Positions 2,819-21,337 of a DNA stretch of 47,087 nucleotides are shown piece after piece (within the stretch, counting starts at the first letter, position 1; each line of letters opens with the position of its first letter). Below the pieces are notes generated by a model. It did not search any database, was not told the DNA's origin, and worked only from the letters and a program-made list of their open reading frames with translations. The position numbers and the translations under genes were made by a program. Origin of the DNA: a virus. Taxonomy: Duplodnaviria > Heunggongvirae > Uroviricota > Caudoviricetes. The stretch is taken from IMG/VR virus record IMGVR_UViG_2718218131_000001, one strand, 5' to 3'.

Positions 2819-5441
<2,623 letters not shown>

Positions 5442-5446: not shown

Positions 5447-5845
5447 GCCAAACAGTGTGTTATAAATCCATGCCAGTCCGCTTTTAGCGTCGCCAGTTGC
5501 CTGCCATTCGATAATCGCAGCCTGCATGACCAGAATGTTTTTCCCGATTAACAGGTCCAGCTCTTTGAACCGGTTGCGGATGTATGCATTCTCGCTTTGT
5601 AATTTTGCGTTGCGCTTCTCTGCGGCTTCCAGCTCAACACGCAGCTTCCCTACCGTTAGCGCAATTTCCTCGTTCTCCTGGTCGCGGCGTTTGATGTATT
5701 GCTGGTTTCTTTCCCGTTCATCCAGCAGTGCCAGCACAATCGATGGTGTTACCAGCTCATGGAAAAGGTCCGCATCAAATCCCCAGTCGTCATGCATTGC
5801 CTGCTCTGCCGCTTCACGCAGTGCCTGAGAGTTAATTTCGCTCAC
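5447..5845 (-). pseudogene. ea22-like gene, N-terminal fragment truncated by the IS100 insertion
   Basis: Track ORF 5426..5845 (GTG start); coiled-coil-like protein MSEINSQALREAAEQ...; reading runs 4 codons into the IS (VNDG) then stops; joining to 3332..3487 gives an in-frame 184-aa ORF. Confidence 0.8.
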
Positions 5846-6063
5846 TTCGAACCTCTCTGTTTACTGATAAGCTCCAGATCCTCCTGGCAACTTGCACAAG
5901 TCCGACAACCCTGAACGGCCAGACGTCTTAGTTCATCTATCGGATCGCCACACTCACAACAATGAGTGGCAGATATAGCCTGGTGGTTCAGGCGGTGCAT
6001 TTTTATTGCTGTGTTGCGCTGTAATTCTTCAGTTTCTGATGCTGAATCAATGATGTCTGCCAT
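5842..6063 (-). CDS. Small C4 zinc-finger protein (TraR/DksA-like)
   Basis: 73-aa ORF with CCECGDPID...CRTCASC cysteine pairs; ATG start. Confidence 0.5.
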   Translation of the reverse strand: MADIIDSASETEELQRNTAIKMHRLNHQAISATHCCECGDPIDELRRLAVQGCRTCASCQEDLELISKQRGSK

Positions 6064-6115
6064 CTTCCATTAATCCCTGAATTGTTGGTTAATACGCTTG
6101 AGGGTGAATGCGAAC

Positions 6116-6139
6116 AATAAAAAAGGAGCCTGTAGCTCC
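6116..6139 (-). terminator. Rho-independent terminator (leftward transcript)
   Basis: Hairpin GGAGC-CTGTA-GCTCC followed by a T-run on the minus strand. Confidence 0.5.
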
Positions 6140-6161
6140 CTGATGATTTTGCTTTTCATGT

Positions 6162-6377
6162 TCATCGCTCCTTAAAGACGCCGTTTAACATGCCGATCGC
6201 CAGACTTAAATGAGTCGGTGTGAATCCCATCAGCGTTACCGTTTCGCGGTGCTTCTTCAGTACGCTACGGCAAATGTCATCGACGTTTTTATCCGGAAAC
6301 TGCTGTCTGGCTTTTTTGATTTCAGAATTAGCCTGACGGGCAATGCTGCGAAGGGCGTTTTCCTGCTGAGGTGTCAT
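6162..6377 (-). CDS. Small hypothetical protein, lambda exo-proximal orf63-like
   Basis: Track ORF 6162..6443; probable start MTPQQENALRSIARQ...; position and size match the small ORFs left of exo in lambda. Confidence 0.45.
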   Translation of the reverse strand: MTPQQENALRSIARQANSEIKKARQQFPDKNVDDICRSVLKKHRETVTLMGFTPTHLSLAIGMLNGVFKER

Positions 6378-6453
6378 TGAACAAGTCCCATGTCGGCAAG
6401 CATAAGCACACAGAATATGAAGCCTGCTGCCAGAAAAATGCATTCTGTTGTTG

Positions 6454-6603
6454 TCATGCCGGGTCTCTCTCGTTTGCTTCTGCTTTCGCCGCCATCATTT
6501 CCAGCTTTTGTGAAAGGGATGTGGCTAACGTATGAAATTCTTCGTCTGTTTCTACTGGTATTGGCACAAACCTGACTCCAATTTGAGCGAGGCTATGTGC
6601 CAT
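6454..6603 (-). CDS. Small hypothetical protein, lambda orf60a-like
   Basis: Track ORF 6454..6645; probable start MAHSLAQIGVRFVPIPVETDEEF. Confidence 0.4.
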   Translation of the reverse strand: MAHSLAQIGVRFVPIPVETDEEFHTLATSLSQKLEMMAAKAEANERDPA

Positions 6604-6617
6604 CCCGATACTCGTTC

Positions 6618-6806
6618 TTAATTCAACAGGAGATGCTTTGTGCATACAGTCCCTCGTTTATTATTTATCTCTTCAGCCAGCCGCTGTGCTTTCAGTGGAT
6701 TTCGCATAACAGAAAGGCCGGGAAATACCCAGCCTCGCTTTGTAACGGAGTAGACGAAAGTTATCGCGCCTACCCGGATATTATCGTGAGGATGCTTCAT
6801 CGCCAT
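6618..6806 (-). CDS. Small hypothetical protein, lambda orf61-like
   Basis: 62-aa ORF immediately downstream of exo on the same strand. Confidence 0.4.
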
Positions 6807-7477
6807 TGCTCCCCAAATACAAAACCAATTTCAGCTAGTGCCTCGTCCATTTTTTCGATGAACTCCGGCACCATCTCGTCAAAACTCGCTATGTACTTTT
6901 CATCCCGCTCAACCACGACATAATGCAGGCCTTCACGCTTCATTCGCGGGTCATAGTTGGCAAAGTACCAGGCATCTTTTCGCGTCACCCACATGCTGTA
7001 CTGCACCTGGGCCATGTAAGCCGACTTTATGGCCTCGAAACCACCGAGCCGGAACTTCATGAAATCCCGGGAGGTAAACGGGCATTTCAGCTCAAGGCCA
7101 TTGCCGTCACTGCATAAACCATCGGGAGAGCAGGCGGTGCGCATACTTTCGTCGCGATAGATGATCGGGGATTCAGTAACATTCACGCCGGAAGTGAATT
7201 CAAACAGGGTTCTGGCGTCGTTCTCGTACTGTTTTCCCCAGGCCAGCGCCTTAGCATTAACTTCCGGAGCCACACCGGTGCAAACCTCAGCAAGCAGGGT
7301 GTGGAAGTAGGACATTTTCATGTCAGGCCATTTCTTTCCGGATCGGGGTTTTGCTATCACGTTGTGAACTTCTGAAGCTGTAATGACGCCGAGCCGTAAT
7401 TTGTGCCACGCATCATCCCCCTGTTCGACAGCTCTCACGTCGATCCCGGTACGCTGCAGGATAATGTCCGGTGTCAT
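6797..7477 (-). CDS. exo: Lambda exonuclease (Red-alpha)
   Basis: 226-aa [43 protein letters not shown]... matches lambda Exo. Confidence 0.95.
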
Positions 7478-8259
7478 GCAGCCACCTTCTGTTCAGAGGC
7501 TTTCTGTTTCAGGAATCCAAGAGCTTTCACTGCTTCGGCCTGTGTCAGTTCTGACGATGCGCGAATGTCGCGGCGAAATATCTGGGAACAGAGCGGCAAT
7601 AAGTCGTCATCCCATGTTTTGTCCAGGGCAATCAGCAGAGTGTTAATCTCCTGCATGGTTTCATCGTTAACCGGAGTGATGTCGCGTTCCGGCTGACGTT
7701 CTGCAGTGTATGCGGTATTTTCGACAATGCGCTCGGCTTCATCCTTGTCATAGATACCAGCAAATCCGAAGGCCAGACGGGCACACTGAATCATGGCTTT
7801 ATGCCGTAACATCCGTTTGGGATGCGACTGCCACGGTCCGGTGATTTCTCTGCCTTCGCGGGTTTTGAATGGTTCGCGGCGGCATTCATCCATCCATTCG
7901 GTAACGCAGATCGGATGATTACGGTCTTTGCGGTAAATCCGGCATGTACAGGATTCATTGTCCTGCTCAAAGTCCATGCCATCAAACTGCTGGTTTTCAT
8001 TGATGATGCGGGACCAGCCATCAACGCCCACCACCGGAACGATGCCGTTCTGCTTGTCAGGGAAGGCGTAAATTTCTTTCGTCCACGGATTAAGGCCGTA
8101 CTGGTTGGCGACGATCAGCAATGCGATGAACTGCGCATCGCTGGCATCACCTTTAAATGCCGTCTGGCGAAGAGTGGTGATCAGTTCCTGTGGGTCGACA
8201 GAATCCATGCCGACACGTTCAGCCAGCTTCCCTGCCAGCGTTGCGAGTGCTGTACTCAT
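7474..8259 (-). CDS. bet: Single-strand annealing protein Bet (Red-beta)
   Basis: 261-aa [40 protein letters not shown]... matches lambda Bet. Confidence 0.95.
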
Positions 8260-8264
8260 CCGTT

Positions 8265-8681
8265 TTATACCTCTGAATCAATATCAACCTGATGGTGAGC
8301 AATGGTTTCAACCATGTACCGGATGTGTTCTGCCATGCGCTCCTGAAACTCAACATCGTCATCAAACGCACGGGTAATGGCTTTTTTGCTGGCCCCGTGG
8401 CGTTGCAAATGATCGATGCATAGCGATTCAAACAGGTGCTGGGGCAGGCCTTTTTCCATGTCGTCTGCCAGTTCTGCCTCTTTCTCTTCACGGGCGATCT
8501 GCTGGTAGTGACGCGTCCAGCTCTGAGCCTCAAGACGATCCTGAATGTAATAAGCGTTCATGGCTGAACTCCTGAAATAGCTGTGAAAATATCGCCCGCG
8601 AAATGCCGGGCTGATTAGGAAAACAGGGAAGGGGGTTAGTGAATGCTTTTGCTTGATCTCAGTTTCAGTATTAATATCCAT
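8265..8681 (-). CDS. gam: RecBCD inhibitor Gam
   Basis: 138-aa [39 protein letters not shown]... matches lambda Gam. Confidence 0.95.
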
Positions 8682-8779
8682 TTTTTATAAGCGTCGACGG
8701 CCTCACGAAACATCTTTTCATCGCCAATAAAAGTGGCGATAGTGAATTTAGTCTGGATAGCCATAAGTGTTTGATCCAT
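8636..8779 (-). CDS. kil: Host-killing protein Kil
   Basis: C-terminal 47 codons of track ORF 8636..8905 ([47 protein letters not shown]) match lambda Kil. Confidence 0.8.
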
Positions 8780-8912
8780 TTTTTGGGACTCCTGGCTGAT
8801 TAAGTATGTCGATAAGGCGTTTCCATCCGTCACGTAATTTACGGGTGATTCGTTCAAGTAAAGATTCGGAAGGGCAGCCAGCAACAGGCCACCCTGCAAT
8901 GGCATATTGCAT
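8748..8912 (-). CDS. cIII: Protease inhibitor CIII
   Basis: 54-codon ORF below the track cutoff, overlapping kil in another frame; reads [54 protein letters not shown]; coordinates set from the track-supported frame. Confidence 0.55.
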   Translation of the reverse strand: MQYAIAGWPVAGCPSESLLERITRKLRDGWKRLIDILNQPGVPKNGSNTYGYPD

Positions 8913-8984
8913 GGTGTGCTCCTTATTTATACATAACGAAAAACGCCTCGAGTGAAGCGTTATTGGTATGCGGTAACGCAGCGC

Positions 8985-9353
8985 TCAGGCGGCTTTGATA
9001 GTCATATCATCTGAATCAAATATTCCTGATGTATCGATATCGGTAATTCTTATTCCTTCGCTACCATCCATTGGAGGCCATCCTTCCTGACCATTTCCAT
9101 CATTCCAGTCGAACTCACACACAACACCATATGCATTTAAGTCGCTTGAAATTGCTATAAGCAGAGCATGTTGCGCCAGCATGATTAATACAGCATTTAA
9201 TACAGAGCCGTGTTTATTGAGTCGGTATTCAGAGTCTGACCAGAAATTATTAATCTGGTGAAGTTTTTCCTCTGTCATTACGTCATGGTCGATTTCAATT
9301 TCTATTGATGCTTTCCAGTCGTAATCAATGATGTATTTTTTGATGTTTGACAT
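8985..9353 (-). CDS. ea10: Lambda Ea10-like protein
   Basis: 122-aa ORF MSNIKKYIIDYDWKASIEIEIDHDVMTEEKLHQINNFW... matches lambda Ea10; GAGGA RBS. Confidence 0.85.
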   Translation of the reverse strand: MSNIKKYIIDYDWKASIEIEIDHDVMTEEKLHQINNFWSDSEYRLNKHGSVLNAVLIMLAQHALLIAISSDLNAYGVVCEFDWNDGNGQEGWPPMDGSEGIRITDIDTSGIFDSDDMTIKAA

Positions 9354-9371
9354 CTATTCATATCCTCATAG

Positions 9372-9401
9372 ATAAAAAATTGCCCTCACATCGGAGGGCA
9401 A
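9372..9401 (-). terminator. Rho-independent terminator (leftward)
   Basis: Hairpin TTGCCCTC-(6 nt)-GAGGGCAA followed by T6 on the minus strand, just upstream of ea10. Confidence 0.5.
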
Positions 9402-9516
9402 AGAAGATTTCCAATAATCAGAACAAGTCGGCTCCTGTTTAATTATGAGCGACATTTCTCCGTGTATTCACTCGTTGGAATGAATGCACAGTGCAGTGTT
9501 TATTCTGTTGTTTATG

Positions 9517-9544
9517 CCAAAAATAAAGGCCGACTATGCGGCCT
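9517..9544 (-). terminator. Rho-independent terminator (leftward)
   Basis: Hairpin AGGCCG-(6 nt)-CGGCCT followed by TTTATTTTT on the minus strand, just after the 149-aa membrane protein gene. Confidence 0.5.
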
Positions 9545-9548
9545 AAAA

Positions 9549-9998
9549 TTACTTAACCAATGATGCTGCATATTCGATAAGGTAAAGCTTTGGGGCCAGC
9601 CAAATTTTTAACCAAGTCATATTGGTTACTACAGCAATAATAAAACTTACCCACAGAACAAAAACTGCAGCTAATGGTAAGATTAGAAAACTAATCTCAC
9701 CGTTACTTTCCCAAATCATAGTCGGTTTGTATTTAGTCTTCCCCTTATCCCATGACCATCCTTCATCATCGAACTTACCAATTTCAACTTTTTGGCACTG
9801 TTTCTTCATAAACCAGAAAACCAGCGGGATTGTTAAAATGGCTATTAATGTTTTAATCAGACTGTCAACCATATTCCATAGCAGTAACTGATGAACAACA
9901 TCAGGAATCTGTGCCTGGCTAAATGAGACAGCCGCGTCTATTCCATTACTGGCTTTTTGCAATAGTTCTATGAGAATCTTATTTGCCTGTTCTTCCAT
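9549..9998 (-). CDS. Membrane protein in the ral/sieB slot (candidate superinfection-exclusion protein)
   Basis: 149-aa ORF with two hydrophobic segments (LIKTLIAILTIPLVFWFM and ISFLILPLAAVFVLWVSFIIAVV); AT-rich; sits between ea10 and N. Confidence 0.55.
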   Translation of the reverse strand: MEEQANKILIELLQKASNGIDAAVSFSQAQIPDVVHQLLLWNMVDSLIKTLIAILTIPLVFWFMKKQCQKVEIGKFDDEGWSWDKGKTKYKPTMIWESNGEISFLILPLAAVFVLWVSFIIAVVTNMTWLKIWLAPKLYLIEYAASLVK

Positions 9999-10056
9999 AT
10001 ATCACCTCAAATAAGTGGTTTGCTGCCTAATTTCATTTTCTGGCGAACAGTGCAGG

Positions 10057-10329
10057 TTACCTCGCTGTCAGTTGTTTTGATTTCCGGTAGCCTGCCGCGT
10101 AAAGAGCTACGTTCGGAAGACAAGTTGAACCTTCATATTTTCTGGTCAACGTTGTCAGAGTTATAACTTCTGCTCTCATTGCTGGTTTGCGCTTGCATTG
10201 CAAGACCACTCGTGAAGGGGTTGGCCTGTGTAGCTTGTCGGAGCTAATCGCCTCCTGACTTTGCAGGTTTGCGCGACGAGCTCTACGGCGAGAAGCTGCG
10301 GTGCCTTTAAATTCTGTTTTTCTGGACAT
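10057..10329 (-). CDS. N: N-type transcription antiterminator (P22 gp24-like)
   Basis: Track ORF 10057..10401; start at internal ATG 10329 with GGGAGG RBS; arginine-rich N-terminus GTAASRRRARRANLQ; C-terminus LPNVALYAAGYRKSKQLTAR resembles P22 gp24. Confidence 0.75.
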   Translation of the reverse strand: MSRKTEFKGTAASRRRARRANLQSQEAISSDKLHRPTPSRVVLQCKRKPAMRAEVITLTTLTRKYEGSTCLPNVALYAAGYRKSKQLTAR

Positions 10330-10427
10330 AGATTCCTCCCGAATAAACTTTGGCGATGCAATCTCGAAGCTCCTCCTGAGACGGTTACTTCGGCATTGCA
10401 TCCCACAGCTTATGTGGTTGGGTGATC

Positions 10428-10473
10428 TGGCTTTTCAGCCACGTAGTCGAGTGTTCGACGTTGTTTAAAGAGC
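10428..10473 (-). promoter_or_regulatory. nutL-like site (boxA GGCTCTTTAA, boxB GGCTGAAAAGCC)
   Basis: On the leftward transcript between pL and N: boxA-like element then a short hairpin with GAAAA-type loop; the boxB loop matches the nutR candidate. Confidence 0.4.
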
Positions 10474-10519
10474 CTGCCAGTCTGCTCCGTTTGGCTTACA
10501 GCGTCCTGCTGATGAGTTG

Positions 10520-10566
10520 ACTTTATCGAAATGATAAACTGATGGCAATAGCAAAATGATAAATTG
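10520..10566 (-). promoter_or_regulatory. pL/oL: leftward early promoter with repressor operators
   Basis: Minus strand TTGCCA-17 nt-TAAAGT; two copies of the AAATGATAAA operator motif that also recurs in oR. Confidence 0.5.
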
Positions 10567-10744
10567 TTTGGGTTTTCAAATATCCTGTTGATTATTATGG
10601 TTTTTTATTTGATTGCGGGAATTTATCAGAAGGAATGAAGAGACTTGAGGGGGATCAGAATTTCGTGGTTTAGAAAGTTGTATCTATCAATTTTTCAATA
10701 AATACAATTGGTTAAGGTGTTATTAGGTGTGGGGATCGTGAGGC

Positions 10745-10770
10745 AAAGAAAACCCGGCGCTGAGGCCGGG
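10745..10770 (-). terminator. tImm-like rho-independent terminator
   Basis: Hairpin CCCGGC-(6 nt)-GCCGGG followed by TTTTCTTT on the minus strand; surrounding ~100 bp recalled as the lambda sequence just downstream of rexB. Confidence 0.6.
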
Positions 10771-10791
10771 TTCTGTCATCTAACTTAAGTA

Positions 10792-10920
10792 TCAAGCCGC
10801 TTTTTGTGAATGATTGATGTGAGCTTCAAAGTCGCGGCGTAGATTTTGAACGCGCTCTACACATCCGCGCATTTCAGCCAAAAGCTTACTAACGGCAGTA
10901 TAGTCAAACGCTTTAGTCAT
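10792..10920 (-). CDS. Small hypothetical protein (42 aa), second gene of the rex-slot cassette
   Basis: ATG at 10920 preceded by GAGGGG then an A-run; MTKAFDYTAVSKLLAEMRGCVERVQNLRRDFEAHINHSQKAA; stop 3 bp before the tImm hairpin region; below the track length cutoff. Confidence 0.45.
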   Translation of the reverse strand: MTKAFDYTAVSKLLAEMRGCVERVQNLRRDFEAHINHSQKAA

Positions 10921-10935
10921 TTTTTTTCCCCTCGT

Positions 10936-11298
10936 TTAAATGTAAGGCTCAACATCAAGGGCTGCTATTGCTGCGCACAATGCGTCAGGATCGTCAGCAT
11001 CGATGGCTTGAGCCAGGTCATTAGCCAGTATAAGTAACTTATCGATGACAGCGATTTCGCTGGTCTTATCTACACGAAAGTATGGGAGCAGAGCATTACA
11101 TACGTCTCTGAATGTCCGTAATTCTGCGACAACGTTCGAAAAGGTAGGATCTTTCTTACGAAGATCCACCAATGGCGCTACTTTAGCTGTTTTCAGCATT
11201 GCACTAATCTCGCCAATCATTGTTCCATGCAGACGATTAAATTCATCAACAGCTCGGTCATGCAAGCTCTTGTTGATTGGCAATACGTTTTGGGTCAC
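10936..11298 (-). CDS. Hypothetical protein (120 aa), first gene of the rex-slot cassette
   Basis: GTG start with consensus AAGGAG 8 nt upstream; predicted soluble, no recognised motifs; AT-rich. Confidence 0.6.
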   Translation of the reverse strand: MTQNVLPINKSLHDRAVDEFNRLHGTMIGEISAMLKTAKVAPLVDLRKKDPTFSNVVAELRTFRDVCNALLPYFRVDKTSEIAVIDKLLILANDLAQAIDADDPDALCAAIAALDVEPYI

Positions 11299-11566
11299 TA
11301 ACTATACTCCTTATATAGGTGTTCGCCAACAGATTTTCAATATGACTTGGGCGATTTCTGAACAATAAGCACGATTTAGCAATGATTAATTGATGTTAAG
11401 CACAAATATCTCTACATCGTGCATTTTTAACTATTTATACACATAAAATCTAATAAATGGATATAAACCTTATGATGATTTTTCTCAATCGAATTGAATA
11501 ATGATCTCTATCACATCACCCAAACGTCTCTTCAGGCCACTGGTTACCAGCTATGTGACGATGAAG

Positions 11567-12271
11567 TCACGAACTTTTCAGCCACTCCCTTGCCTCGATG
11601 TCATCCAGATGGCGAGATTGCTTCAGAATACCAGCCACATACTCCACCTTTGCTACTTGATGATAAGGCAACGTTATTGGCCTGTGGTCCTGGTTGATGC
11701 TTGTAAATTGGTATTCTCCATCTCTGTCATAGCCAAGAACTTTGATCATGTTGTGTCCTTCAACAGTTCTGACAAACACCTCATCCCCCGGGAATACTTT
11801 GGTGTTAGGCTCAATGAGTACATATTCTCCTGATTTTATTCTGGGCCACATGCTGTCTCCTTTCACACGAAGACCAAAGGCATCTGGATCATCGCTATAA
11901 ATATTGAGCCACCCATCGCGCTCTTCGGTCATCTCGATGGCACCATCAACACCAAGAATTGCCTCACCAACCACGCGCACTAACCCTTTTCTTACCTGAC
12001 CGACAAAAGTTAAAGAATCTGAGCATGATGCAATTGGTGTTACATCATGTACCAAATCAAGCCACCCATTAGGTAACCCAAGTGCGGCTTCGAATTTTCT
12101 TGCTAGTTTATCCCCTATGTTTCGAGTGCTTTTTTCACCGGAGACTTGCGTGAGTTGAGAAGGGCTAACTCCAAGCTTATCGGCAAAGCTTGCATTAGTG
12201 TTACCCGCGATTTTTTTATGCTCATCTAGCAAAAACGCCAGATTCGATTTGCGAATATCTTTGTTTTCCAT
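11567..12271 (-). CDS. cI: CI-type prophage repressor (HTH + S24 LexA-like peptidase domain)
   Basis: 234-aa ORF; N-terminal HTH (FADKLGVSPSQLTQV), C-terminal autocleavage domain with GDSM serine and downstream lysine; divergent from lambda CI. Confidence 0.85.
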   Translation of the reverse strand: MENKDIRKSNLAFLLDEHKKIAGNTNASFADKLGVSPSQLTQVSGEKSTRNIGDKLARKFEAALGLPNGWLDLVHDVTPIASCSDSLTFVGQVRKGLVRVVGEAILGVDGAIEMTEERDGWLNIYSDDPDAFGLRVKGDSMWPRIKSGEYVLIEPNTKVFPGDEVFVRTVEGHNMIKVLGYDRDGEYQFTSINQDHRPITLPYHQVAKVEYVAGILKQSRHLDDIEAREWLKSS

Positions 12272-12293
12272 CCCACGATTCTCCCTCTATTTA

Positions 12294-12356
12294 GCAAATG
12301 GATAAATATGCATTTTGATAAATCTTCATTGCGTTTTATTTATCAAAATGGTAAAG
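12294..12356. promoter_or_regulatory. oR operator cluster with pR
   Basis: Three AAATG(G)ATAAA-type sites including the inverted pair CATTTTGATAAA / TTTATCAAAATG; plus-strand TTGCGT-17 nt-TAAAGT facing cro. Confidence 0.5.
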
Positions 12357-12384
12357 TCGCTCTGTGTGATAAACGGAGGCACTA

Positions 12385-12618
12385 ATGAGTAATGAACTAC
12401 TACGCTGGCGAAAAGAGGCTTCTAGTGAGGAATGGAAGCGACTCGCCGCATTAGCGAATACTTCAGTTGGCTATCTTGATCAGATTGCATATGGGTTTCG
12501 AAGAGCTTCCCCAGATAAAGCGAATGCAATCGAAGAAGCCACTCGTAATTTCACGGGTTATAAACCTGTGAAAAAGGAAAATCTGGTGTTCGTATCGCGT
12601 AGAGCATCAGCAGCATAA
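12385..12618 (+). CDS. cro: Cro-like HTH regulator
   Basis: 77-aa ORF divergent from cI across the operator region; GGAGG RBS; HTH-like WKRLAALANTSVGYLDQIAYG. Confidence 0.65.
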   Translation: MSNELLRWRKEASSEEWKRLAALANTSVGYLDQIAYGFRRASPDKANAIEEATRNFTGYKPVKKENLVFVSRRASAA

Positions 12619-12625
12619 GTAACCC

Positions 12626-12671
12626 CGCTCTTTGTAACAACGGACATTCGTCCTACGTCGCTGAAAAGCGA
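12626..12671 (+). promoter_or_regulatory. nutR-like site (boxA CGCTCTTTG, boxB CGCTGAAAAGCG)
   Basis: boxA-like sequence then a small hairpin with TGAAAA loop between cro and cII. Confidence 0.45.
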
Positions 12672-12756
12672 GTTCCAAGATATCTGACCAACTAAGGCCA
12701 TATGCGTTTCCACGCATACCTTTCAACTAGCTATTCACTATTGGAAATCTTAAGAA

Positions 12757-13053
12757 ATGGAACAAACAAGTTACAGCAAACTATCACAGCGTGATGTTGA
12801 TCGCGCAGAAACAGATTTACTTATCAACCTGTCAACGCTTACCCAGCGCGGTCTGGCAAAGATGATTGGCTGTCATGAATCGAAGATAAGCAGAACGGAC
12901 TGGAGATTTATTGCTTCGGTCTTGTGTGCTTTCGGAATGGCATCAGACATCAGTCCGATTAGCAGGGCTTTTAAGTATGCGCTTGATGAAATCACAAAGA
13001 AAAAATCCCCGGTGGCCGCCGGGGACTCTAAGCAAATTGATATGCAATTCTGA
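12757..13053 (+). CDS. cII: CII-like transcriptional activator
   Basis: 98-aa ORF; HTH region and C-terminus KKKSPVAAGDSKQIDMQF parallel lambda CII. Confidence 0.8.
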   Translation: MEQTSYSKLSQRDVDRAETDLLINLSTLTQRGLAKMIGCHESKISRTDWRFIASVLCAFGMASDISPISRAFKYALDEITKKKSPVAAGDSKQIDMQF

Positions 13054-13085
13054 GGGAATTACTGGATCAATCCACAGGAGTCATT

Positions 13086-13957
13086 ATGACAAATACAGCA
13101 AAAATACTCAACTTCGGCAGAGGTAACTTTGCCGAACAGGAGCGTAATGTGGCAGATCTCGATGATGGTTACGCCAGACTATCAAATATGCTGATTGAGG
13201 CTTATTCAGGCGCAGATCTGACCAAGCGACAGTTTAAAGTGCTGCTTGCCATTCTGCGTAAAACCTATGGGTGGAATAAACCAATGGACAGAATCACCGA
13301 TTCTCAACTTAGCGAGATTACAAAGTTACCTGTCAAACGGTGCAATGAAGCCAAGTTAGAACTCGTCAGAATGAATATTATCAAGCAGCAAGGCGGCATG
13401 TTTGGACCAAATAAAAACATCTCAGAATGGTGCATCCCTCAAAACGAGGGAGGTTCCCCTAAAATGAGGGACATCCCTCAAAACAGGGGGACACAAAAGA
13501 CACTATTACAAAAGAAAAAAGAAAAGATTATTCGTCCGAGAATTCTGGCGAATCCTCTGACCAGCCAGAAAACGATCTTTCTGTGGTTAAACCGGATGCT
13601 GCAATTCAGAGCGGCAGCAAGTGGGGAACAGCAGAAGACCTGACCGCCGCAGAGTGGATGTTTGACATGGTGAAGACCATCGCACCATCAGCCAGAAAAC
13701 CGAATTTTGCAGGGTGGGCTAACGATATCCGCCTGATGCGTGAACGTGACGGACGTAACCACCGCGATATGTGTGTGCTTTTCCGCTGGGCCTGCCAGGA
13801 CAACTTCTGGTCCGGTAACGTGCTGAGTCCGGCCAAACTCCGCGACAAGTGGACCCAGCTCGAAATCAACCGTAACAAGCAACAGGCAGGCGTGACAGCC
13901 AGCAAACCAAAACTCGACCTGACAAACACTGACTGGATTTACGGGGTGGATTTATGA
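13086..13957 (+). pseudogene. O: Replication initiator O, split across two frames in the iteron region
   Basis: Track ORF 13086..13643 matches lambda O N-terminal domain; track ORF 13583..13957 in another frame matches the O C-terminal domain; frame changes at the iterons. Confidence 0.7.
13435..13491. repeat. ori iterons (three TCCCTCAAAACGAGGGA-type repeats) inside O
   Basis: TCCCTCAAAACGAGGGA, TCCCCTAAAATGAGGGA and TCCCTCAAAACAGGGGGA at about 20-bp spacing, followed by an A-rich stretch. Confidence 0.75.
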
Positions 13958-14655
13958 AAAACATCGCCGCACAGATGGTTAACTTTGACCGTGAGCAGAT
14001 GCGTCGGATCGCCAACAACATGCCGGAACAGTACGACGAAAAGCCGCAGGTACAACAGGTAGCGCAGATCATCAACGGTGTGTTCAGCCAGTTACTGGCA
14101 ACTTTCCCGGCGAGCCTGGCTAACCGTGACCAGAACGAACTGAACGAAATCCGCCGCCAGTGGGTTCTGGCTTTCCGGGAAAACGGGATCACCACAATGG
14201 AACAGGTTAACGCAGGAATGCGCGTAGCCCGTCGGCAGAATCGACCATTCCTGCCATCACCCGGGCAGTTTGTTGCATGGTGCCGGGAAGAAGCATCCGT
14301 TATCGCCGGACTGCCAAACGTCAGCGAGCTGGTTGATATGGTTTACGAGTATTGCCGGAAGCGAGGCCTGTATCCGGATGCGGAGTCTTATCCGTGGAAA
14401 TCAAACGCGCACTACTGGCTGGTTACCAACCTGTATCAGAACATGCGGGCCAATGCGCTTACTGATGCGGAATTACGCCGTAAGGCCGCAGATGAGCTTG
14501 TCCATATGACTGCGAGAATTAACCGTGGTGAGGCGATCCCTGAACCAGTAAAACAACTTCCTGTCATGGGCGGTAGACCTCTAAATCGTGCACAGGCTCT
14601 GGCGAAGATCGCAGAACTCAAAGCTAAGTTCGGACTGAAAGGAGCAAGTGTATGA
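13954..14655 (+). CDS. P: Replication protein P (DnaB helicase loader)
   Basis: 233-aa ORF MKNIAAQMVNFDREQMRRIANNMPEQYDEKPQVQQVAQ... matches lambda P. Confidence 0.95.
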   Translation: MKNIAAQMVNFDREQMRRIANNMPEQYDEKPQVQQVAQIINGVFSQLLATFPASLANRDQNELNEIRRQWVLAFRENGITTMEQVNAGMRVARRQNRPFLPSPGQFVAWCREEASVIAGLPNVSELVDMVYEYCRKRGLYPDAESYPWKSNAHYWLVTNLYQNMRANALTDAELRRKAADELVHMTARINRGEAIPEPVKQLPVMGGRPLNRAQALAKIAELKAKFGLKGASV

Positions 14656-14942
14656 CGGGCAAAGAGGCAATTATTCATTACCTGGGGACGCATAATAGCT
14701 TCTGTGCGCCGGACGTTGCCGCGCTAACAGGCGCAACAGTAACCAGCATAAATCAGGCCGCGGCTAAAATGGCACGGGCAGGTCTTCTGGTTATCGAAGG
14801 TAAGGTCTGGCGAACGGTGTATTACCGGTTTGCTACCAAGGAAGAACGGGAAGGAAAGATGAGCACGAACCTAATTTTTAAGGAGTGTCGCCAGAGTGCC
14901 GCGATGAAACGGGTATTGGCGGTATATGGAGTTAAAAGATGA
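14652..14942 (+). CDS. ren: Ren (Rex-exclusion resistance protein)
   Basis: 96-aa ORF MTGKEAIIHYLGTHNSFCAPDVAALTGATVTSINQAAAKM... matches lambda Ren. Confidence 0.9.
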   Translation: MTGKEAIIHYLGTHNSFCAPDVAALTGATVTSINQAAAKMARAGLLVIEGKVWRTVYYRFATKEEREGKMSTNLIFKECRQSAAMKRVLAVYGVKR

Positions 14943-14967
14943 CCATCTACATCACTGAGCTAATAAC

Positions 14968-14999
14968 AGGCCTGCTGGTAATCGCAGGCCTTTTTATTT
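14968..14999 (+). terminator. tR2-like rho-independent terminator
   Basis: Hairpin AGGCCTGC-(8 nt)-GCAGGCCT followed by TTTTTATTT directly after ren. Confidence 0.55.
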
Positions 15000-15014
15000 G
15001 GGGGAGAGTAAATC

Positions 15015-15221
15015 GTGGTTGAGTTGATTTTTTCTGCATTGAGGATTCTCGGTGCTATGTGGATGGTGGCGACGTTCATTGTGGTTGCCAGCAGTTTTGT
15101 CCGGCTGGTAGGCGAAGGTAAAGACCTGGTTGGTGTGCTTTTCGGTAGCATTTTCCTGTGGGTGATTATCGGTGTTGCGCCTGTCGCTGTAGCAAAAATG
15201 GCGTGGCGTTTTGTGAGTTGA
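15015..15221 (+). CDS. Small hydrophobic hypothetical protein
   Basis: 68-aa ORF, GTG start, two hydrophobic segments; coding status uncertain. Confidence 0.3.
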   Translation: MVELIFSALRILGAMWMVATFIVVASSFVRLVGEGKDLVGVLFGSIFLWVIIGVAPVAVAKMAWRFVS

Positions 15222-15222
15222 G

Positions 15223-15675
15223 GTGACAATGAAGCAAATATACATGCTTCGCAACGAAGCAATCAGAAACAACGCCATAGACGCAATACTCTCACTTCCG
15301 ATCGACGACAAGTCACCTCACGAAGTCCACATTAAAGAACCAAAGCGGAGCAATCCTCAAAACCGCCTTATGTGGGCGTTATTGCAGGACGTATCACGTC
15401 AGGTGCTTTGGCATGGACAGAGACTTGCGCCGGAGGACTGGAAAGACCTGTTCACTGCCCTGTGGCTTAAGACCAAAAAACTGGAGCAACGAAGTGTGCC
15501 TGGTATCGATGGTGGCGTTGTCATGCTTGGCGTGCGTACCAGCAAAATGCGAAAGGCCAGCATGACTGAGCTTATCGAAATCATGTTTTGGTTCGGCTCA
15601 GAGCGCAACGTGCGGTGGAGTGATGACTCCCGGCGAGAGTATGAATGGTCACAACGAAAAGGTAGGGCTGCATGA
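15223..15675 (+). CDS. ninB: NinB recombination protein
   Basis: 150-aa ORF with conserved NinB core (DVSRQVLWHG...). Confidence 0.8.
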   Translation: MTMKQIYMLRNEAIRNNAIDAILSLPIDDKSPHEVHIKEPKRSNPQNRLMWALLQDVSRQVLWHGQRLAPEDWKDLFTALWLKTKKLEQRSVPGIDGGVVMLGVRTSKMRKASMTELIEIMFWFGSERNVRWSDDSRREYEWSQRKGRAA

Positions 15676-16199
15676 CTATCAAATCAAATACACCAGCACA
15701 CGACAAGGACTGCTGGCAAACGCCGCTTTGGCTTTTTGATGCGCTGGATATTGAGTTTGGATTCTGGCTGGATTCAGCTGCGAGCGACAAAAATGCTCTG
15801 TGCGCTCACTGGCTAACTGAGGCCGACGACGCACTCAATTCTGAGTGGATAAGCCACGGTGCAATCTGGAATAACCCACCGTACAGCAATATCAGGCCGT
15901 GGGTGGAAAAAGCCGCTGAGCAGTGCATACAACAGCGACAGACGGTAGTGATGCTTGTGCCAGAGGATATGTCTGTCGGATGGTTCAGCAAGGCTCTGGA
16001 GAGTGTTGACGAAGTTCGCATTATCACTGATGGACGGATTAATTTTATCGAACCATCGACAGGGCTGGAGAAGAAGGGAAACAGTAAAGGCTCCATGCTG
16101 CTGATTTGGCGACCGTTCATCAGTCCTCGACGGATGTTTACTACCGTATCCAAAGCGGCATTGATGGCGATCGGGCAGGGCGTCAGGAGGGCGGCATGA
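15672..16199 (+). CDS. Phage DNA N6-adenine methyltransferase
   Basis: 175-aa ORF with NPPY catalytic motif (IWNNPPYSN); occupies the ninC position. Confidence 0.8.
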
Positions 16200-16378
16200 G
16201 GCGACAGCGACGAAGTTTCACCGACATCATCTGCGAAAACTGCAAATACCTTCCAACGAAACGCTACAGAAATAAACGCAAGCCAATCCCAAAAGAATCT
16301 GACGTAAAAACCTTCAATAACACGGCTCACCTGTGGGATATCCGGTGGCTAAGAAATCGTGCGAGGAAAACAAGGTGA
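16196..16378 (+). CDS. ninE: NinE protein
   Basis: 60-aa [63 protein letters not shown] matches lambda NinE. Confidence 0.8.
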
Positions 16379-16545
16379 TTGACCAAAATCGAAGTTACGA
16401 ACAAGAAAGCGTCGAGCGAGCTTTAACGTGCGCTAACTGCGGTCAGAAGCTGCATGTGCTGGAAGTTCACGTATGTGAGCACTGCTGCGCAGAACTGATG
16501 AGCGATCCGAATAGCTCAATGTACGAGGAAGAAGACGATGAGTGA
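16375..16545 (+). CDS. ninF: NinF protein
   Basis: C-terminal 56 codons of track ORF 16333..16545 ([47 protein letters not shown]) match lambda NinF; start GTG 16375 or ATG 16333. Confidence 0.6.
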
Positions 16546-16807
16546 TTTCTCTGAGCTTATTTCCTTCAAAAAAGACAGAGAAGAAATGCGGACTGAATCT
16601 GTCTATTACGTTCAACACCGGAATAAACGCTCGGTGCTTGATCAGGAGTTGGTTATTACCGGAGACCTGGCATTCAGAACATATAAGGCCAGCATGGAAA
16701 TGAAGGATTTCCCTAAATGTGGTTCTGAAAGAGAAGCTGCGTTAAAGCTGGCTGAGTGGATGCAGAGAATGGCTGCTGCAATTGAGAATTACTGGAGTGA
16801 ACCATAA
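16538..16807 (+). CDS. Hypothetical nin-region protein
   Basis: 89-aa ORF, overlapping stop/start with neighbours; family not recognised. Confidence 0.5.
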   Translation: MSDFSELISFKKDREEMRTESVYYVQHRNKRSVLDQELVITGDLAFRTYKASMEMKDFPKCGSEREAALKLAEWMQRMAAAIENYWSEP

Positions 16808-17097
16808 TGGCTAACCTACGCAAAGAAGCGCGCGGCAGAGAATGCCAGGTACGTATTTACGGCGTATGCAATGGCAATCCTGAAACTACAGTTCTGGCAC
16901 ATTACCGGATGGCTGGAATTTGCGGAACGGGAATGAAGCCTGACGACCTGATCGGCGCATGGGCTTGTAGCGCGTGTCACGATGAAATCGACCGACGCAC
17001 AATGATTATCGACAACAAAGATGCCAGACTTTACCACCTCGAAGGCGTGATCAGGACGCAGGCGATACTGCTGAAGGAGGGGAAGATTAAGTCATGA
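16807..17097 (+). CDS. Cys-rich hypothetical protein (DUF1364-like)
   Basis: 96-aa ORF with CQVRIYGVC ... CSACHDE cysteine motifs; resembles small zinc-binding nin-region proteins. Confidence 0.5.
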   Translation: MANLRKEARGRECQVRIYGVCNGNPETTVLAHYRMAGICGTGMKPDDLIGAWACSACHDEIDRRTMIIDNKDARLYHLEGVIRTQAILLKEGKIKS

Positions 17098-17456
17098 ACG
17101 AATATCAGTTTGTGCTTCCATACCCGCCGTCGTTGAATACCTACTGGCGAAGACGGGGAAGCCAATACTACATCAGCGATAAAGGCCAGAAATACCGAAA
17201 AGACGTTCAGCAAATCATCCACCAACTCAAGTTAGATATTTTCACCAAATCACGACTCCGCATCAAAGTCATCGCAGACGTTCCAGACTCCCGCCGCCGC
17301 GACCTCGATAACATCCTGAAAGGTTTACTCGACTCCCTTATCCACGCCGGATTTGCGGAAGACGACGAGCAATTCGATGACATTCGCGTAATTCGTGGTG
17401 TGAAAGTACCAGGCGGAAGGCTTGGAATAAAAATCACCGAACTGGAGAACGCATGA
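17094..17456 (+). CDS. rusA: Holliday junction resolvase RusA
   Basis: 120-aa ORF with RRRDLDNILKGLLDSL catalytic aspartate region typical of RusA. Confidence 0.85.
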   Translation: MNEYQFVLPYPPSLNTYWRRRGSQYYISDKGQKYRKDVQQIIHQLKLDIFTKSRLRIKVIADVPDSRRRDLDNILKGLLDSLIHAGFAEDDEQFDDIRVIRGVKVPGGRLGIKITELENA

Positions 17457-17641
17457 ACGCCACAATTCAAACGATACCAGAGCTTCTTATCCATACACGA
17501 GGCAATCAGACCGAAGTGGCAAGGATGCTTTCCTGCGCAAGAGGAACAGTGCTCAAGTACAACCGAGACAGCAAAGGCGAGCGTCATGTAATAGTTAACG
17601 GCGTCCTGATGGTCAAACAGGGCAAGAGGGGAAGACGATGA
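17453..17641 (+). CDS. ninH: NinH-like protein
   Basis: 62-aa ORF ...GNQTEVARMLSCARGTVLKY... parallels lambda NinH. Confidence 0.6.
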   Translation: MNATIQTIPELLIHTRGNQTEVARMLSCARGTVLKYNRDSKGERHVIVNGVLMVKQGKRGRR

Positions 17642-18261
17642 GACTCGAAAGCGTAGCTAAATTTCATTCGCCAAAAAGCCCGATGATGAGCGACTCACCA
17701 CGGGCCACGGCTTCTGACTCTCTTTCCGGTACTGATGTGATGGCTGCTATGGGGATGGCACAATCACAGGCCGGATTCGGTATGGCTGCATTCTGCGGTA
17801 AGCATGAACTCAGCCAGAACGACAAACAAAAGGCTATCAACTATCTGATGCAATTTGCACACAAGGTATCGGGGAAATACCGTGGTGTGGCAAAGCTCGA
17901 AGGAAATACTAAGGCAAAGGTACTGCAAGTGCTCGCAACATTCGCTTATGCGGATTATTGCCGTAGTGCCGCTACGCCGGGCGCAAGATGCAGAGATTGC
18001 CACGGTACAGGCCGTGCGGTTGATATAGCCAAAACAGAGCAGTGGGGGATAGTTGCTGAGAAAGAGTGCGGAAGATGTAAAGGCGTCGGTTATTCAAGAA
18101 TGCCAGCAAGCGCCGCATATCGCGCTGTGACGATGCTAATCCCAAACCTTACCCAACCCACCTGGTCACGCACTGTTAAGCCGCTGTATGACGCTCTGGT
18201 TGTGCAATGCCACAAGGAAGAGTCAATCGCAGACAACATTTTGAATGCGATCACACGTTAG
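17638..18261 (+). CDS. Q: Late-gene antiterminator Q
   Basis: 207-aa ORF MRLESVAKFHSPKSPMMSDSPRATASDSLSGTDVMAAMG... matches lambda Q including zinc-finger cysteines. Confidence 0.95.
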   Translation: MRLESVAKFHSPKSPMMSDSPRATASDSLSGTDVMAAMGMAQSQAGFGMAAFCGKHELSQNDKQKAINYLMQFAHKVSGKYRGVAKLEGNTKAKVLQVLATFAYADYCRSAATPGARCRDCHGTGRAVDIAKTEQWGIVAEKECGRCKGVGYSRMPASAAYRAVTMLIPNLTQPTWSRTVKPLYDALVVQCHKEESIADNILNAITR

Positions 18262-18303
18262 CGCCATGATTGCCACGGATGGCAACATATTAACGGCATA
18301 ATA

Positions 18304-18332
18304 TTGACTTTTTGAATAACTTTGGGGAAACT
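18304..18332 (+). promoter_or_regulatory. pR' late promoter
   Basis: TTGACT-17 nt-GAAACT directly downstream of Q; aligns with the recalled lambda pR' (TTGACT...TAAATT); similarity to lambda ends just after it. Confidence 0.5.
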
Positions 18333-18540
18333 TGACACCAATAATGGGCGTTTTTTACATGTCATTGATGAGTCTCAATAACCTGCCGCCGAGTAGTTTT
18401 TATGCTCTGAATTGTATTTGTGTAGTAAACATGCTGACTGCAATGTAATAGAGTTTTTTTAGCCTGTAACCTCTTGACGGCATTGAATTGCTTTTGTTAT
18501 GAGTTGTAAGCCAATGTTATCATCTTGTATTGGGGTGGTT

Positions 18541-19011
18541 ATGAAGGATGGTGCGCTGCTCAGGAGTTCTTCACTTTTTATTGCCTACATGGGATGCCTT
18601 GGATGGGGGAGTGCTTATTTCTATGGATGGGGTACTTCTTTTTACTACGGCTTCCCATGGTGGATTGTAGGTGCAGGTGTTGATGATGTTGCCAGAAGTT
18701 TATTTTTTGCAGTTATCGTCATTGCTATATTTCTTATCGGTTGGGGTATTGGTGTTGTATTCTTTTTCGCAGTGAAAAGAAAACATTCTATGCAAGAGCT
18801 AAATGTATTTCGCCTTTATTTTGCTGTGGAATTATTGTTTGTGCCGGCAATTATTGAGTTTTCTATATTGAGACAGAAGATTCAGGTACCTCTTTTGCTA
18901 CTGTCAGCAGCGATTGCGCTGGCGGTTACAATTTCGATAAGATCTTATGGGCGATTTTTATCGGTATCATGCTTCTATGATAAGCCATTTATAAAAAAAA
19001 CATTTTTTTGA
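18541..19011 (+). CDS. Multi-pass membrane protein (W/G/F-rich), first ORF of the pR'-proximal cassette
   Basis: Track ORF 18499..19011; start placed at ATG 18541 with GGGGTGG upstream; about 4 predicted TM helices; very AT-rich. Confidence 0.5.
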   Translation: MKDGALLRSSSLFIAYMGCLGWGSAYFYGWGTSFYYGFPWWIVGAGVDDVARSLFFAVIVIAIFLIGWGIGVVFFFAVKRKHSMQELNVFRLYFAVELLFVPAIIEFSILRQKIQVPLLLLSAAIALAVTISIRSYGRFLSVSCFYDKPFIKKTFF

Positions 19012-19015
19012 GATT

Positions 19016-19210
19016 GTGATGATTGCTTTTGTGGCATATTTCTGGCTTTTTTCATTTCTGACAGGATATTACAAACCACAGTTTAAGAAAGAATATGAAA
19101 TGATTAATTATAATGATGGTTGGTATTATGTTCTTGCTCGTTATGATAATTGTCTGGTTTTGTCTACTTCTTTCAATGCAGGTAGTAAAAGGTTTGTCAT
19201 TTATCAATAA
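19016..19210 (+). CDS. Small hydrophobic protein, possibly the displaced C-terminus of the upstream membrane protein
   Basis: 64-aa ORF starting 5 nt after the upstream stop, +1 frame; one hydrophobic helix; joins the upstream ORF if the A8 tract at 18993..19000 loses one base. Confidence 0.4.
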   Translation: MMIAFVAYFWLFSFLTGYYKPQFKKEYEMINYNDGWYYVLARYDNCLVLSTSFNAGSKRFVIYQ

Positions 19211-19688
19211 GCACAAGATAAGAATCTTCAGGTTGATATTGTAAGGACCAGAATTTAATTGGCTGCATAAATAATATTTTAAGTTGCAAGTTGGCTATTC
19301 GTAGGAATAGAACCTTAGGCATGCTGAATGCGTTTTCTGAACATTGTTTTATAAACTGTGTCTGCTTGCTGTTGTGATCCTGCTTTTAGTGATGGTGATG
19401 ATGGATTTCACCAGCAGGATAATGTTGGTACTGACTGATGGCGCTCTGGTCTGCGGCATTGTGGTATTGCTGTGGCCGATGATGAAAGAACAGAATGAAT
19501 AATTCTTGACTTTTTTGTTTACTGTTTATTAAAAAATCAACCGCATGGTGAATCCTCCTTGGAGGGGCTAAATGATCGAGTTTTAAGGGCACGTAGCGAG
19601 TTCTGTTTGATCATTGCAGAACTTAGCGGGAGGCGCCATGCGTACATCACTAATGTTATTTCCTTCTATCATTTTCCTTGTGAGTTCT

Positions 19689-19715
19689 GGCTGCGCATGG
19701 CGCGGCCTTTTTTTT
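19689..19715 (+). terminator. Strong rho-independent terminator in the late leader (tR'-like position)
   Basis: 8-bp GC-rich stem GGCTGCGC / GCGCGGCC with one G-U pair, followed by T8. Confidence 0.6.
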
Positions 19716-20123
19716 ATGACCTGCCACTGGCAGATGGTCATCCTGTGATTTGATTCCGGTTCCGGCTTTTTAACTCTGTTCCTGTACACGGGAGAAATTC
19801 TATGTCGATTAATCGTTATGATATTGGTTACAAGAAGTACCACGTATTGTGTTGAGATAGAAAGCATGGTGCCAGAGGTAAATGCAGCAGCATAATAAAA
19901 AAGAGCCAGCGCAGAAGAGAACGGGTAAAAGAGTCTGCGCTGGCGTGGGGATATTCCCCGTGGAGAAATGATATGTAACACACATCGGGAACCTTTCTAT
20001 ATAAACATTATCATTATTGTCAATCATAACAGTCAGGTATTATGACGTTTATGCATCAGGGCCATCAGGAATTAACTGGTGGCTTTTTATTGTTGTCAGC
20101 TTCCGGATAACGGGAGACGGGGT

Positions 20124-20339
20124 ATGTACCAGATGGAAAAAATAACAACAGGTGTGTCATACACCACGTCAGCGGTGGGGACGGGATACTGGCTACTGCA
20201 GTTGCTGGACAAAGTCTCTCCGTCCCAGTGGGTGGCAATAGGTGTGCTGGGAAGTCTGCTGTTTGGCCTGCTGACGTATCTGACAAATCTTTATTTCAAG
20301 ATTAAAGAAGATAAGCGTAAGGCTGCGAGAGGTGAATAA
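20124..20339 (+). CDS. S: Class II holin (phage 21 S21-type pinholin)
   Basis: 71 codons from MYQMEK (dual Met start); ...[40 protein letters not shown] matches S21. Confidence 0.85.
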
Positions 20340-20836
20340 TGTCGCCGTCATTACGCAAGGCTGTTGCAGCTGCTATTGGTGGTGGGGCTGTTGCCATAGC
20401 GTCTGTGCTCATCACTGGTCCAGGTGGTAACGATGGTCTGGAAGGTGTCAGCTACATACCATACAAAGATATCGTTGGCGTATGGACTGTATGTCACGGA
20501 CACACCGGAAAAGACATCATGCCCGGTAAAACGTATACCGAAGCAGAATGCAAAGCCCTCCTGAATAAAGACCTTGCCACGGTCGCCAGACAAATTAACC
20601 CGTACATCAACGTCGATATACCGGAAACAACGCGCGGCGCTCTTTACTCGTTCGTTTACAACGTGGGCGCTGGCAATTTCAGAACATCGACGCTTCTTCG
20701 CAAAATAAACCAGGGCGATATCAAAGGCGCATGTGATCAGCTACGGCGCTGGACATACGCTGGCGGTAAGCAATGGAAAGGGCTGATGACTCGCCGCGAG
20801 ATTGAGCGTGAAGTCTGTTTGTGGGGGCAACAATGA
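20339..20836 (+). CDS. R: SAR endolysin (lysozyme with N-terminal signal-anchor-release helix)
   Basis: 165-aa ORF; Gly/Ala-rich N-terminal hydrophobic helix [20 protein letters not shown] then lysozyme catalytic region; phage-21-type. Confidence 0.85.
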
Positions 20837-21270
20837 GCAGGGTAACCGTTATTATCTCCGCTCTGGTTATCTGCATTATCGCCTGCCTGTCATGGGCTGT
20901 TAATCATTACCGTGATAACGCCATCGCCTACAAAGAGCAGCGCGATAAAGCCACATCCATCATCGCTGATATGCAGAAGCGGCAACGTGATGTAGCAGAA
21001 CTTGACGCCAGATACACAAAGGAGCTTGCTGATGCTAATGCGACTATCGAAAGTCTCCGTGCTGATGTTTCTGCTGGGCGTAAGCGCCTGCAAGTCTCCG
21101 CCACCTGTGCAAAGTCAACGACCGGAGCCAGCAGCATGGGCGATGGAGAAAGCCCAGGACTTACAGCAGATGCTGAACTCAATTATTACCGTCTCCGAGG
21201 TGGAATCGACAAGATAACCGCGCAGGTTAACTACCTGCAGGAATACATCAGGACGCAGTGCTTAAAATAA
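20833..21270 (+). CDS. Rz: i-spanin Rz
   Basis: Track ORF 20821..21270; ATG at 20833 overlaps the endolysin stop; N-terminal TM helix then coiled coil. Confidence 0.8.
21002..21217 (+). CDS. Rz1: o-spanin Rz1 (lipoprotein) embedded in Rz in the +1 frame
   Basis: ORF nested in Rz; signal peptide with lipobox-like VSAC then Pro-rich segment [12 protein letters not shown]; exact start uncertain. Confidence 0.6.
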
Positions 21271-21310
21271 TTTTAATTTCACTGAAATTTAACAAGTGAC
21301 TTTCAGGAAA

Positions 21311-21337
21311 ATGCCTCGCAGATGCGGGGCATTTTTG
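21311..21337 (+). terminator. Rho-independent terminator after the lysis cassette
   Basis: Hairpin ATGCCTCG-(6 nt)-CGGGGCAT followed by TTTTT. Confidence 0.55.

Follow-up and report, generated by a model that had tools for sequence, protein, structure and literature searches.

The stretch of DNA analysed (the window; 47,087 nucleotides) carries a lambdoid prophage in which the replication gene O, 872 bp long, is split over two reading frames inside the origin repeats. PHROG and Pfam assignments together with the annotation of a sister prophage gave the gene order cII–O–P–ren, with the origin within O, which is the lambdoid arrangement. The genes on either side of O are intact, and the start codon of P overlaps the old stop codon of O (ATGA). 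The coordinates of the features are given in Table 1. The layout of the frames was read from the sequence, and the parental allele was inferred by aligning the O gene of the window with those of phage BP-4795, Escherichia coli CB9615 and phage lambda.

Table 1. Features of the O/origin region, of the remainder of the window and of related O alleles (positions refer to the window unless a locus is named).
Feature	Position	Strand	Description	Basis
IS100	3488-5441		1,954 bp; direct CCTGG duplication at both ends; inside an ea22-like accessory gene	
Lambda_thermo (cIII thermoregulator)	8867-8925	minus	88.5 bits; sole Rfam match in the window	Rfam
cII, intact	12757-13053	+	Directly upstream of O	PHROG/Pfam assignments
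Gene O, split	13086-13957	+	872 bp	Frame layout
Truncated O frame	13086-13643	+	185 aa; stop codon 13641-13643	Frame layout, Pfam
Native O codons 1-133	13086-13484	+	Last residues IPQN	Frame layout
Out-of-frame codons 134-185	13485-13640	+	52 unrelated residues	Frame layout
Iteron 1 of 3	13434-13451	+	ATCCCTCAAAACGAGGGA; outermost iteron 1'' of the six-iteron Stx-phage origin	Naming from PMC7466680
Iteron 2 of 3	13454-13471	+	TTCCCCTAAAATGAGGGA; iteron 1' of the six-iteron origin	
Hybrid iteron	13473-13491	+	ATCCCTCAAAAC/AGGGGGA; left half parental iteron 3, right half iteron 6 (lambda ITN4)	
Deletion junction	13473-13484	+	12-bp direct repeat ATCCCTCAAAAC; crossover somewhere inside	
A/T-rich unwinding region	13492-13529	+	Unchanged relative to the intact sister prophage	Position by analogy with lambda ori
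Inverted repeat right of the origin	13530-13552	+	ATTCGTCCGAGAATTCTGGCGAAT	RNA hairpin fold
Open region in the -1 frame	13463-13957	+	Includes the ORF at 13583-13957 (124 aa)	Frame layout
P (helicase loader), intact	13954-14655	+		
IS21-family element	43825-46463		2,639 bp; ATPase annotated as ISSso4-like; about 30 nt into an nleG-family type III effector gene	
One-iteron O pseudogenes	L019 1169-2001; L021 1169-2001; L020 1394-2001		Fused iteron GGTG T ATCCCTCAAAACAGGGGGA	
O of strain 13E0780	L013 2086-2996		911 bp, frameshifted; five iterons	

Translation from the O start codon gives 133 native residues followed by 52 unrelated ones. The Pfam family PF04492 (Phage_rep_O), which represents the iteron-binding domain, was matched over its full profile at residues 22–115 of this 185-residue product (E = 2.6e-36), whereas a Pfam search with the second ORF (124 aa) gave no domain match. 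The sequence homologous to O continues in the −1 frame from the junction at about 13484/13485 to the normal O stop codon at 13955–13957. Read from 13484, this frame encodes the O linker and the C-terminal part (QGDTKDT...GVDL and stop; 157 codons), detached from the N-terminal domain. No single frame joins the N-terminal domain to the C-terminal, P-interacting part. A search by sequence for a solved structure of O returned no match.

Exactly three iterons were found in O, both by pattern matching and as a repeat family. They are spaced by 20 and 19 bp and form an array of 58 nt (13433–13490), compared with 125 bp for a six-iteron array. The iteron pattern has three matches in the 47-kb window against a chance expectation of 0.02, and three matches were reached in none of 100 shuffles. 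The second iteron, TTCCCCTAAAATGAGGGA, with its GG and C spacers, is a signature that is absent from lambda. The preliminary description had reported three iterons, a loss whose length is not a multiple of three and a C-terminal O domain displaced into the ORF at 13583–13957. All of this was borne out, with the qualification that the open frame begins further upstream. It had also described the N-terminal part of O as intact, which it is, over about 115 codons; the native codons in fact reach 133.

The closest known relatives of this gene have six iterons. Among deposited phages and complete E. coli genomes, the best matches to the 872-bp O gene span 939 bp in two pieces with 99.5–99.9% identity; the best-matching phages are BP-4795, P27, H-19B and Stx1/Stx2 phages. 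Outside the gap, the O genes of the Stx-type phages (933W, P27, BP-4795 and H-19B) are 99–100% identical to that of the window. They have in common with it the first two iterons, the right half of the last iteron, the A/T-rich region, the inverted repeat and the order cII–O–P–ren, and differ in having six iterons and one frame of 312 codons, against three iterons and a frameshifted gene, shorter by 67 bp, in the window. The six-iteron array of these phages reads, in order, CATCCCTCAAAACGAGGGA GG, TTCCCCTAAAATGAGGGA C, ATCCCTCAAAACGAGGGA AA, ATCCCCTAAAACGAGGGA TAAAAC, ATCCCTCAAATTAGGGGA TTGCT and ATCCCTCAAAACAGGGGGA. The window keeps the first two iterons of this type (..GAGGGAGG TTCCCCTAAAATGAGGGA C..) and then continues with C ATCCCTCAAAAC AGGGGGA. 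In the nomenclature 1'', 1', 1, 2, 3* and 4, iterons 2 and 3* are lost and iterons 1 and 4 are fused. The outer pair with its GG/TTCCCCTAAAATG signature, the A/T-rich region and the inverted repeat are identical to those of BP-4795, CB9615 and CEC0005. Stx phages have been described as having six iterons and 13 additional O residues (PMC7466680); the A/T-rich region was placed using the published lambda ori coordinates 39034–39160 (PMC3349717). On the evidence of these alignments, the ancestor is the six-iteron, 312-codon, 939-bp O gene of the Stx-type lambdoid phages (933W, P27 and BP-4795).

Relative to this ancestor, the missing 67 bp comprise iteron 3, AA, iteron 4, TAAAAC, iteron 5 and TTGCT (18 + 2 + 18 + 6 + 18 + 5). 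The deletion lies between two copies of ATCCCTCAAAAC and fuses iteron 3 to iteron 6; in the alignment with the sister prophage it appears as a gap at positions 16803–16852 of the sister locus (L005) plus a 16-bp overlap. As 67 = 3 × 22 + 1, the downstream codons fall into the −1 frame. The loss would have arisen by replication slippage or short-homology recombination between the two ATCCCTCAAAAC copies. Taken together, the data very probably describe an O pseudogene with a truncated origin, both resulting from a 67-bp deletion between repeats in an Stx-type ancestor with six iterons, and a defect in replication is the expected outcome.

The nearest sequenced prophage, located beside mdtA in a Korean chicken isolate, E. 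coli Z1323CEC0005, has an intact O gene of 939 bp. The same prophage with a 939-bp O gene is also present in strains CEC0006 and CEC0001. Identity to Z1323CEC0005 is 100% over positions 1–6405 of the window, 99.97% over 6401–13488, 99.93% over 13473–27000 and, the relocated IS element aside, 99.99–100% over 24619–47087. The window differs from its sister only by the 67-bp gap, ten SNPs, the absence of one IS3-family element and one IS21-family element at another site; the 4.5 kb before the gap and the 7.9 kb after it are free of SNPs. Since so similar a sister has an intact O gene, the lesion is young on this backbone. Six of the ten SNPs fall within 122 bp (22395–22516), between a Rha-like gene and the small terminase gene, and this cluster could be a short recombination tract.

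Several mobile elements distinguish these genomes. IS100 is common to the window and Z1323CEC0005 and is seemingly absent from three related chicken strains, as judged from matches that cover 91–92% of the query with no IS100 transposase listed. The IS21-family element of the window is flanked by a 7-bp overlap resembling a target duplication. In Z1323CEC0005 the same IS21-family element lies between the head-decoration and major-capsid genes; the different sites point to independent insertions. The sister also carries a 1,313-bp IS3-family insertion (IS629/IS1203-like, with an annotated AL1L frameshift pseudoknot) at the position equivalent to 6405/6406, where the window is cleanly without it.

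The remainder of the prophage looks complete. The genes int, xis, exo/bet/gam, N, cI, cro, cII, P, ren, the nin genes, Q and the lysis, terminase, head and tail genes are 99.9–100% identical to sister genes that are annotated as intact, and no lesion in an essential function was found other than that in O/ori. The two IS insertions of the window, which had earlier been taken as support for a cryptic prophage, do not serve that purpose, as both are in accessory genes and the other genes examined look intact. A second lesion, in N (10057–10329, minus strand), had been hinted at by a match covering only profile positions 60–157; it was rejected, as the frames show a complete N protein of 90 residues with an arginine-rich motif at the N terminus. 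A tRNA scan of the window found no tRNA genes.

The deletion recurs in other genomes. Using a 44-bp query that can be covered by the fused junction alone, the three-iteron junction was found in 42 of 5,426 complete E. coli genomes; the origin type itself is present in 1,282. In all 11 carrier records that were opened, PGAP labels the gene 'replication protein, frameshifted'. The O26:H11 lineage, in which the gene lies within a degraded ybhC prophage, appears to account for most carriers, although a serotype is given in few of the listed records. Other carriers include O157:H7 F6321, E110019, 2012C-4227, 14EC047, O103 ML775, O39 F8704-2 and O111:H11 88.0502. The three-iteron allele adjoins at least seven different immunity regions (repressor/cro types). 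Several carriers are plainly degraded prophages, and some copies of O have decayed further by IS insertion. The exact 185-residue product is on record in 45 blocks of a large assembly collection, independent short-read assemblies included. The junction was found in none of the deposited phage genomes, where all 137 records with the origin type match the region only in two pieces, and the exact junction had no match in the GTDB species-representative genomes. In IMG/VR it was present in only two contigs, both with UViG names that resemble isolate-genome identifiers. The pseudogene of O26:H11 strain 11368 (ECO26_RS31175, in the ybhC prophage), like the others examined from the 42 genomes, shares with the window the three-iteron array, the junction, the 872-bp length and the frameshift. 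The O26 copy differs by five SNPs in O, in its cII/immunity region and in lying in a heavily degraded prophage, whereas the prophage of the window otherwise looks complete. No account of this specific deletion was found in the literature. The three-iteron allele is already public and flagged as a pseudogene, and is an ordinary, known kind of prophage decay.

Strain B1_2 (L018) combines a three-iteron O gene with the repressor WP_000428099.1, the same repressor as in the sister strain Z1323CEC0005, whose repressor region the window matches at 99.97%. Its downstream P–nin genes are those of the ybhC prophage of O26:H11 11368 (L004), a remnant without cI and cro. The B1_2 prophage may be the undeleted form of the O26 ybhC remnant.

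Related alleles were also found. If the common ATCCCTCAAAAC drives the deletions, a fusion of the first to the last iteron through it is to be expected; such a fusion was found with a synthetic junction query, as an 833-bp single-iteron O gene in ten complete genomes. Starting from four iterons this form would require the loss of 67 bp, and from six iterons that of 106 bp; each of these lengths is 1 mod 3. The 833-bp gene is labelled 'frameshifted' in the three records that were opened (ETEC H10407, S88 and O157:H7 PV15-279). At the junction, the base is T where C was expected in the three copies that were read, and a single mismatch is present in all ten. The 833-bp pseudogene (H10407, S88 and several O157:H7 strains) resembles that of the window in its fusion via ATCCCTCAAAAC, its 1-mod-3 loss and its out-of-frame tail; unlike the window, it has one iteron left, T rather than C at the junction and lambda-like allele backgrounds. 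Strain 13E0780 carries a second copy of the outer iteron pair, a 39-bp duplication, ahead of the fused last iteron also seen in the window. Iterons 1 and 3 lie 39 bp apart, an in-frame distance that converts between four-, six- and eight-iteron forms; it accounts for the viable forms with four and six iterons and for the extra pair in 13E0780.

The lesion would either have arisen in the prophage of the window or have come from another prophage that already carried it. Import of the three-iteron allele by homologous recombination or gene conversion is quite conceivable, though we do not favour it. Two other assemblies (L029 and L031) carry an O gene identical to that of the window (0 differences in 872 positions) beside a different cII region, so that identical three-iteron O–P modules are found with left flanks of other kinds, and the central 440 bp or so of O is nearly invariant among alleles, so that crossovers in this core around the junction leave no trace. 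The odd T common to the one-iteron alleles of H10407, S88 and O157 likewise points to the spread of a single event. Against import, the window matches its intact sister on both sides over the SNP-free distances given above, the 12-bp direct repeats make independent recurrence easy and the three-iteron allele is found on at least five flanking haplotypes. The nearest intact twins also differ from carrier to carrier: the window is closest to CB9615-type alleles and E110019 to 933W-type alleles. The multiple haplotypes and carrier-specific twins fit recurrent deletion.

A different question is whether the split gene still yields a working protein. −1 ribosomal slippage within 13463–13640 would give an O protein with a shortened linker, as both frames are open over these 178 nt and a −1 shift anywhere there rejoins the halves. 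Candidate sites are A_AAC before a rare AGG codon at the junction, three A_AAG tetramers, one A_AAA and a G_AAA_AAA with the origin hairpin 9 nt downstream. The hairpin (13530–13552) lies 3 nt past the last A_AAG and 9 nt past the A-run, inside an 86-nt fold of −19.8 kcal mol−1 (z = −2.9). It is the ordinary origin inverted repeat, however, a normal element of every O gene and not an addition in this allele. No X_XXY_YYZ slippery heptamer was found in the zero frame of the overlap (13463–13640), only Z_ZZN tetramers, and where a strong stimulator is missing, shifting at such tetramers is about 0.15%, the background being 0.11% (PMC4066793).

The one-, three- and five-iteron alleles all need the same −1 shift and share the sequence after the junction. 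The 157-codon C-terminal frame is open, without a secondary lesion, in all 23 three-iteron alleles examined (a set that includes the five-iteron 13E0780), which speaks against an old pseudogene. Slippage, if true, would explain both this always-intact frame and the many immunity neighbours of the allele. The lambda ori− mutants r93, r96 and r99 are small, in-frame, cis-acting deletions in the iteron array inside O. Such in-frame linker deletions leave the O protein active, whereas the deletion in the window also destroys the O frame. Against slippage, the allele is absent from all deposited phage genomes, several carriers are plainly degraded, and the open C-terminal frame is equally explained by a recent deletion or by recombination with intact copies. 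We therefore consider a functional O protein made by recoding improbable, and regard with equal scepticism the proposal that low-level slippage in the one-, three- and five-iteron alleles makes for a down-tuned, conditionally replicating prophage.

A collapse of the iteron repeats during sequencing or assembly, with an intact six-iteron O gene in the real genome, is highly improbable. The gap does end in repeats, a typical place for mis-joins, and in each of the closest complete genomes (Z1323CEC0005, CEC0006 and CEC0001) this prophage carries a 939-bp O gene. The entire array of 125 bp is, however, below ordinary read length, and the recurrence of the identical junction in 42 complete genomes, sequenced in many laboratories, as well as in independent short-read assemblies, argues for real biology rather than the artefact of one platform. 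The two IS differences and ten SNPs relative to the sister likewise indicate a distinct strain and not a mis-assembled copy.

Descent from lambda by the loss of one iteron, as originally proposed, was ruled out by the alignment and the SNP comparison and would be most surprising: lambda O is indeed longer by 28 bp, and a pairwise alignment with it, taken by itself, permits this reading. However, the second iteron and its spacers (GG TTCCCCTAAAATGAGGGA C) match the outer pair of Stx-type origins and not lambda ITN2; the last iteron is preceded by C (the iteron-3 context) and not by T (the lambda ITN4 context); and the sequence outside the gap differs from lambda by 22 SNPs and from the six-iteron alleles (CB9615 and Z1323CEC0005) by none. 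Lambda does have four iterons, as the preliminary description stated, but the window derives from a six-iteron parent by the loss of 67 bp and not from lambda by that of about 28 bp. Lambda resembles the window in having iterons inside O followed by an A/T-rich region, in about 97% nucleotide identity outside indels and in P lying downstream; it differs in its four iterons, its frame of 299 codons and its lack of the outer pair. Compared with the four-iteron lambda origin (ITN1–4 with the lambda spacers), the window has a different second iteron and spacers and is without ITN2 and ITN3. The O gene is 872 bp long in the window, 900 bp in lambda (28 more) and 939 bp in the Stx-type parent (67 more). 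As 28 and 67 are both 1 mod 3, the frameshift is real by either count.

A 67-bp deletion from a six-iteron parent, the reading preferred here, would have consequences for both the protein and the origin. Lambda O contacts the iterons through its N-terminal part and recruits P–DnaB through its C-terminal part. With the iteron-binding and P-recruiting parts uncoupled, P–DnaB should not be delivered to the origin, and an induced prophage could not load DnaB at its own origin and would hence not replicate autonomously. The replication-defective prophage suggested at the outset is thus the natural reading of a frameshifted O gene and a three-iteron origin. Rescue would need a co-resident lambdoid prophage supplying an O protein of the same specificity; such genomes contain as many as five O-like genes.

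In Stx phages, O binds four of the six iterons efficiently; the two outer iterons are bound weakly and yet are needed for replication of a P27 plasmid (PMC7466680). By analogy, the origin of the window would keep one of the four iterons that O binds well, together with the two weakly bound outer ones. Published findings diverge on this point: three iterons have been reported to be enough for the growth of lambda, and two together with the A/T-rich region to be enough in vitro (Moore, 1981; Wickner & McKenney, 1987; both as summarized in PMC7466680). The origin of the window might therefore remain usable with an O protein provided by another prophage. When replication of a trapped prophage would kill the host, initiation-blocking mutations are the class that is selected (PMC3349717). 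The prophage of the window has int and xis, so selection of this kind is not required to explain the lesion.

With the repeats inside O and with distances of 67 and 106 bp between those that match best, neither of them a multiple of three, a single slip disables both the initiator and the origin. The three- and one-iteron alleles together (42 + 10 of 5,426) occur in about 1% of complete E. coli genomes, and recognizing them is of use in annotation and in judging the viability of prophages. An nleG effector gene lies at the end of the window, and nleA is next in the sister genome. As the prophage is probably not self-replicating, the spread of its effector cargo would depend on helper prophages.
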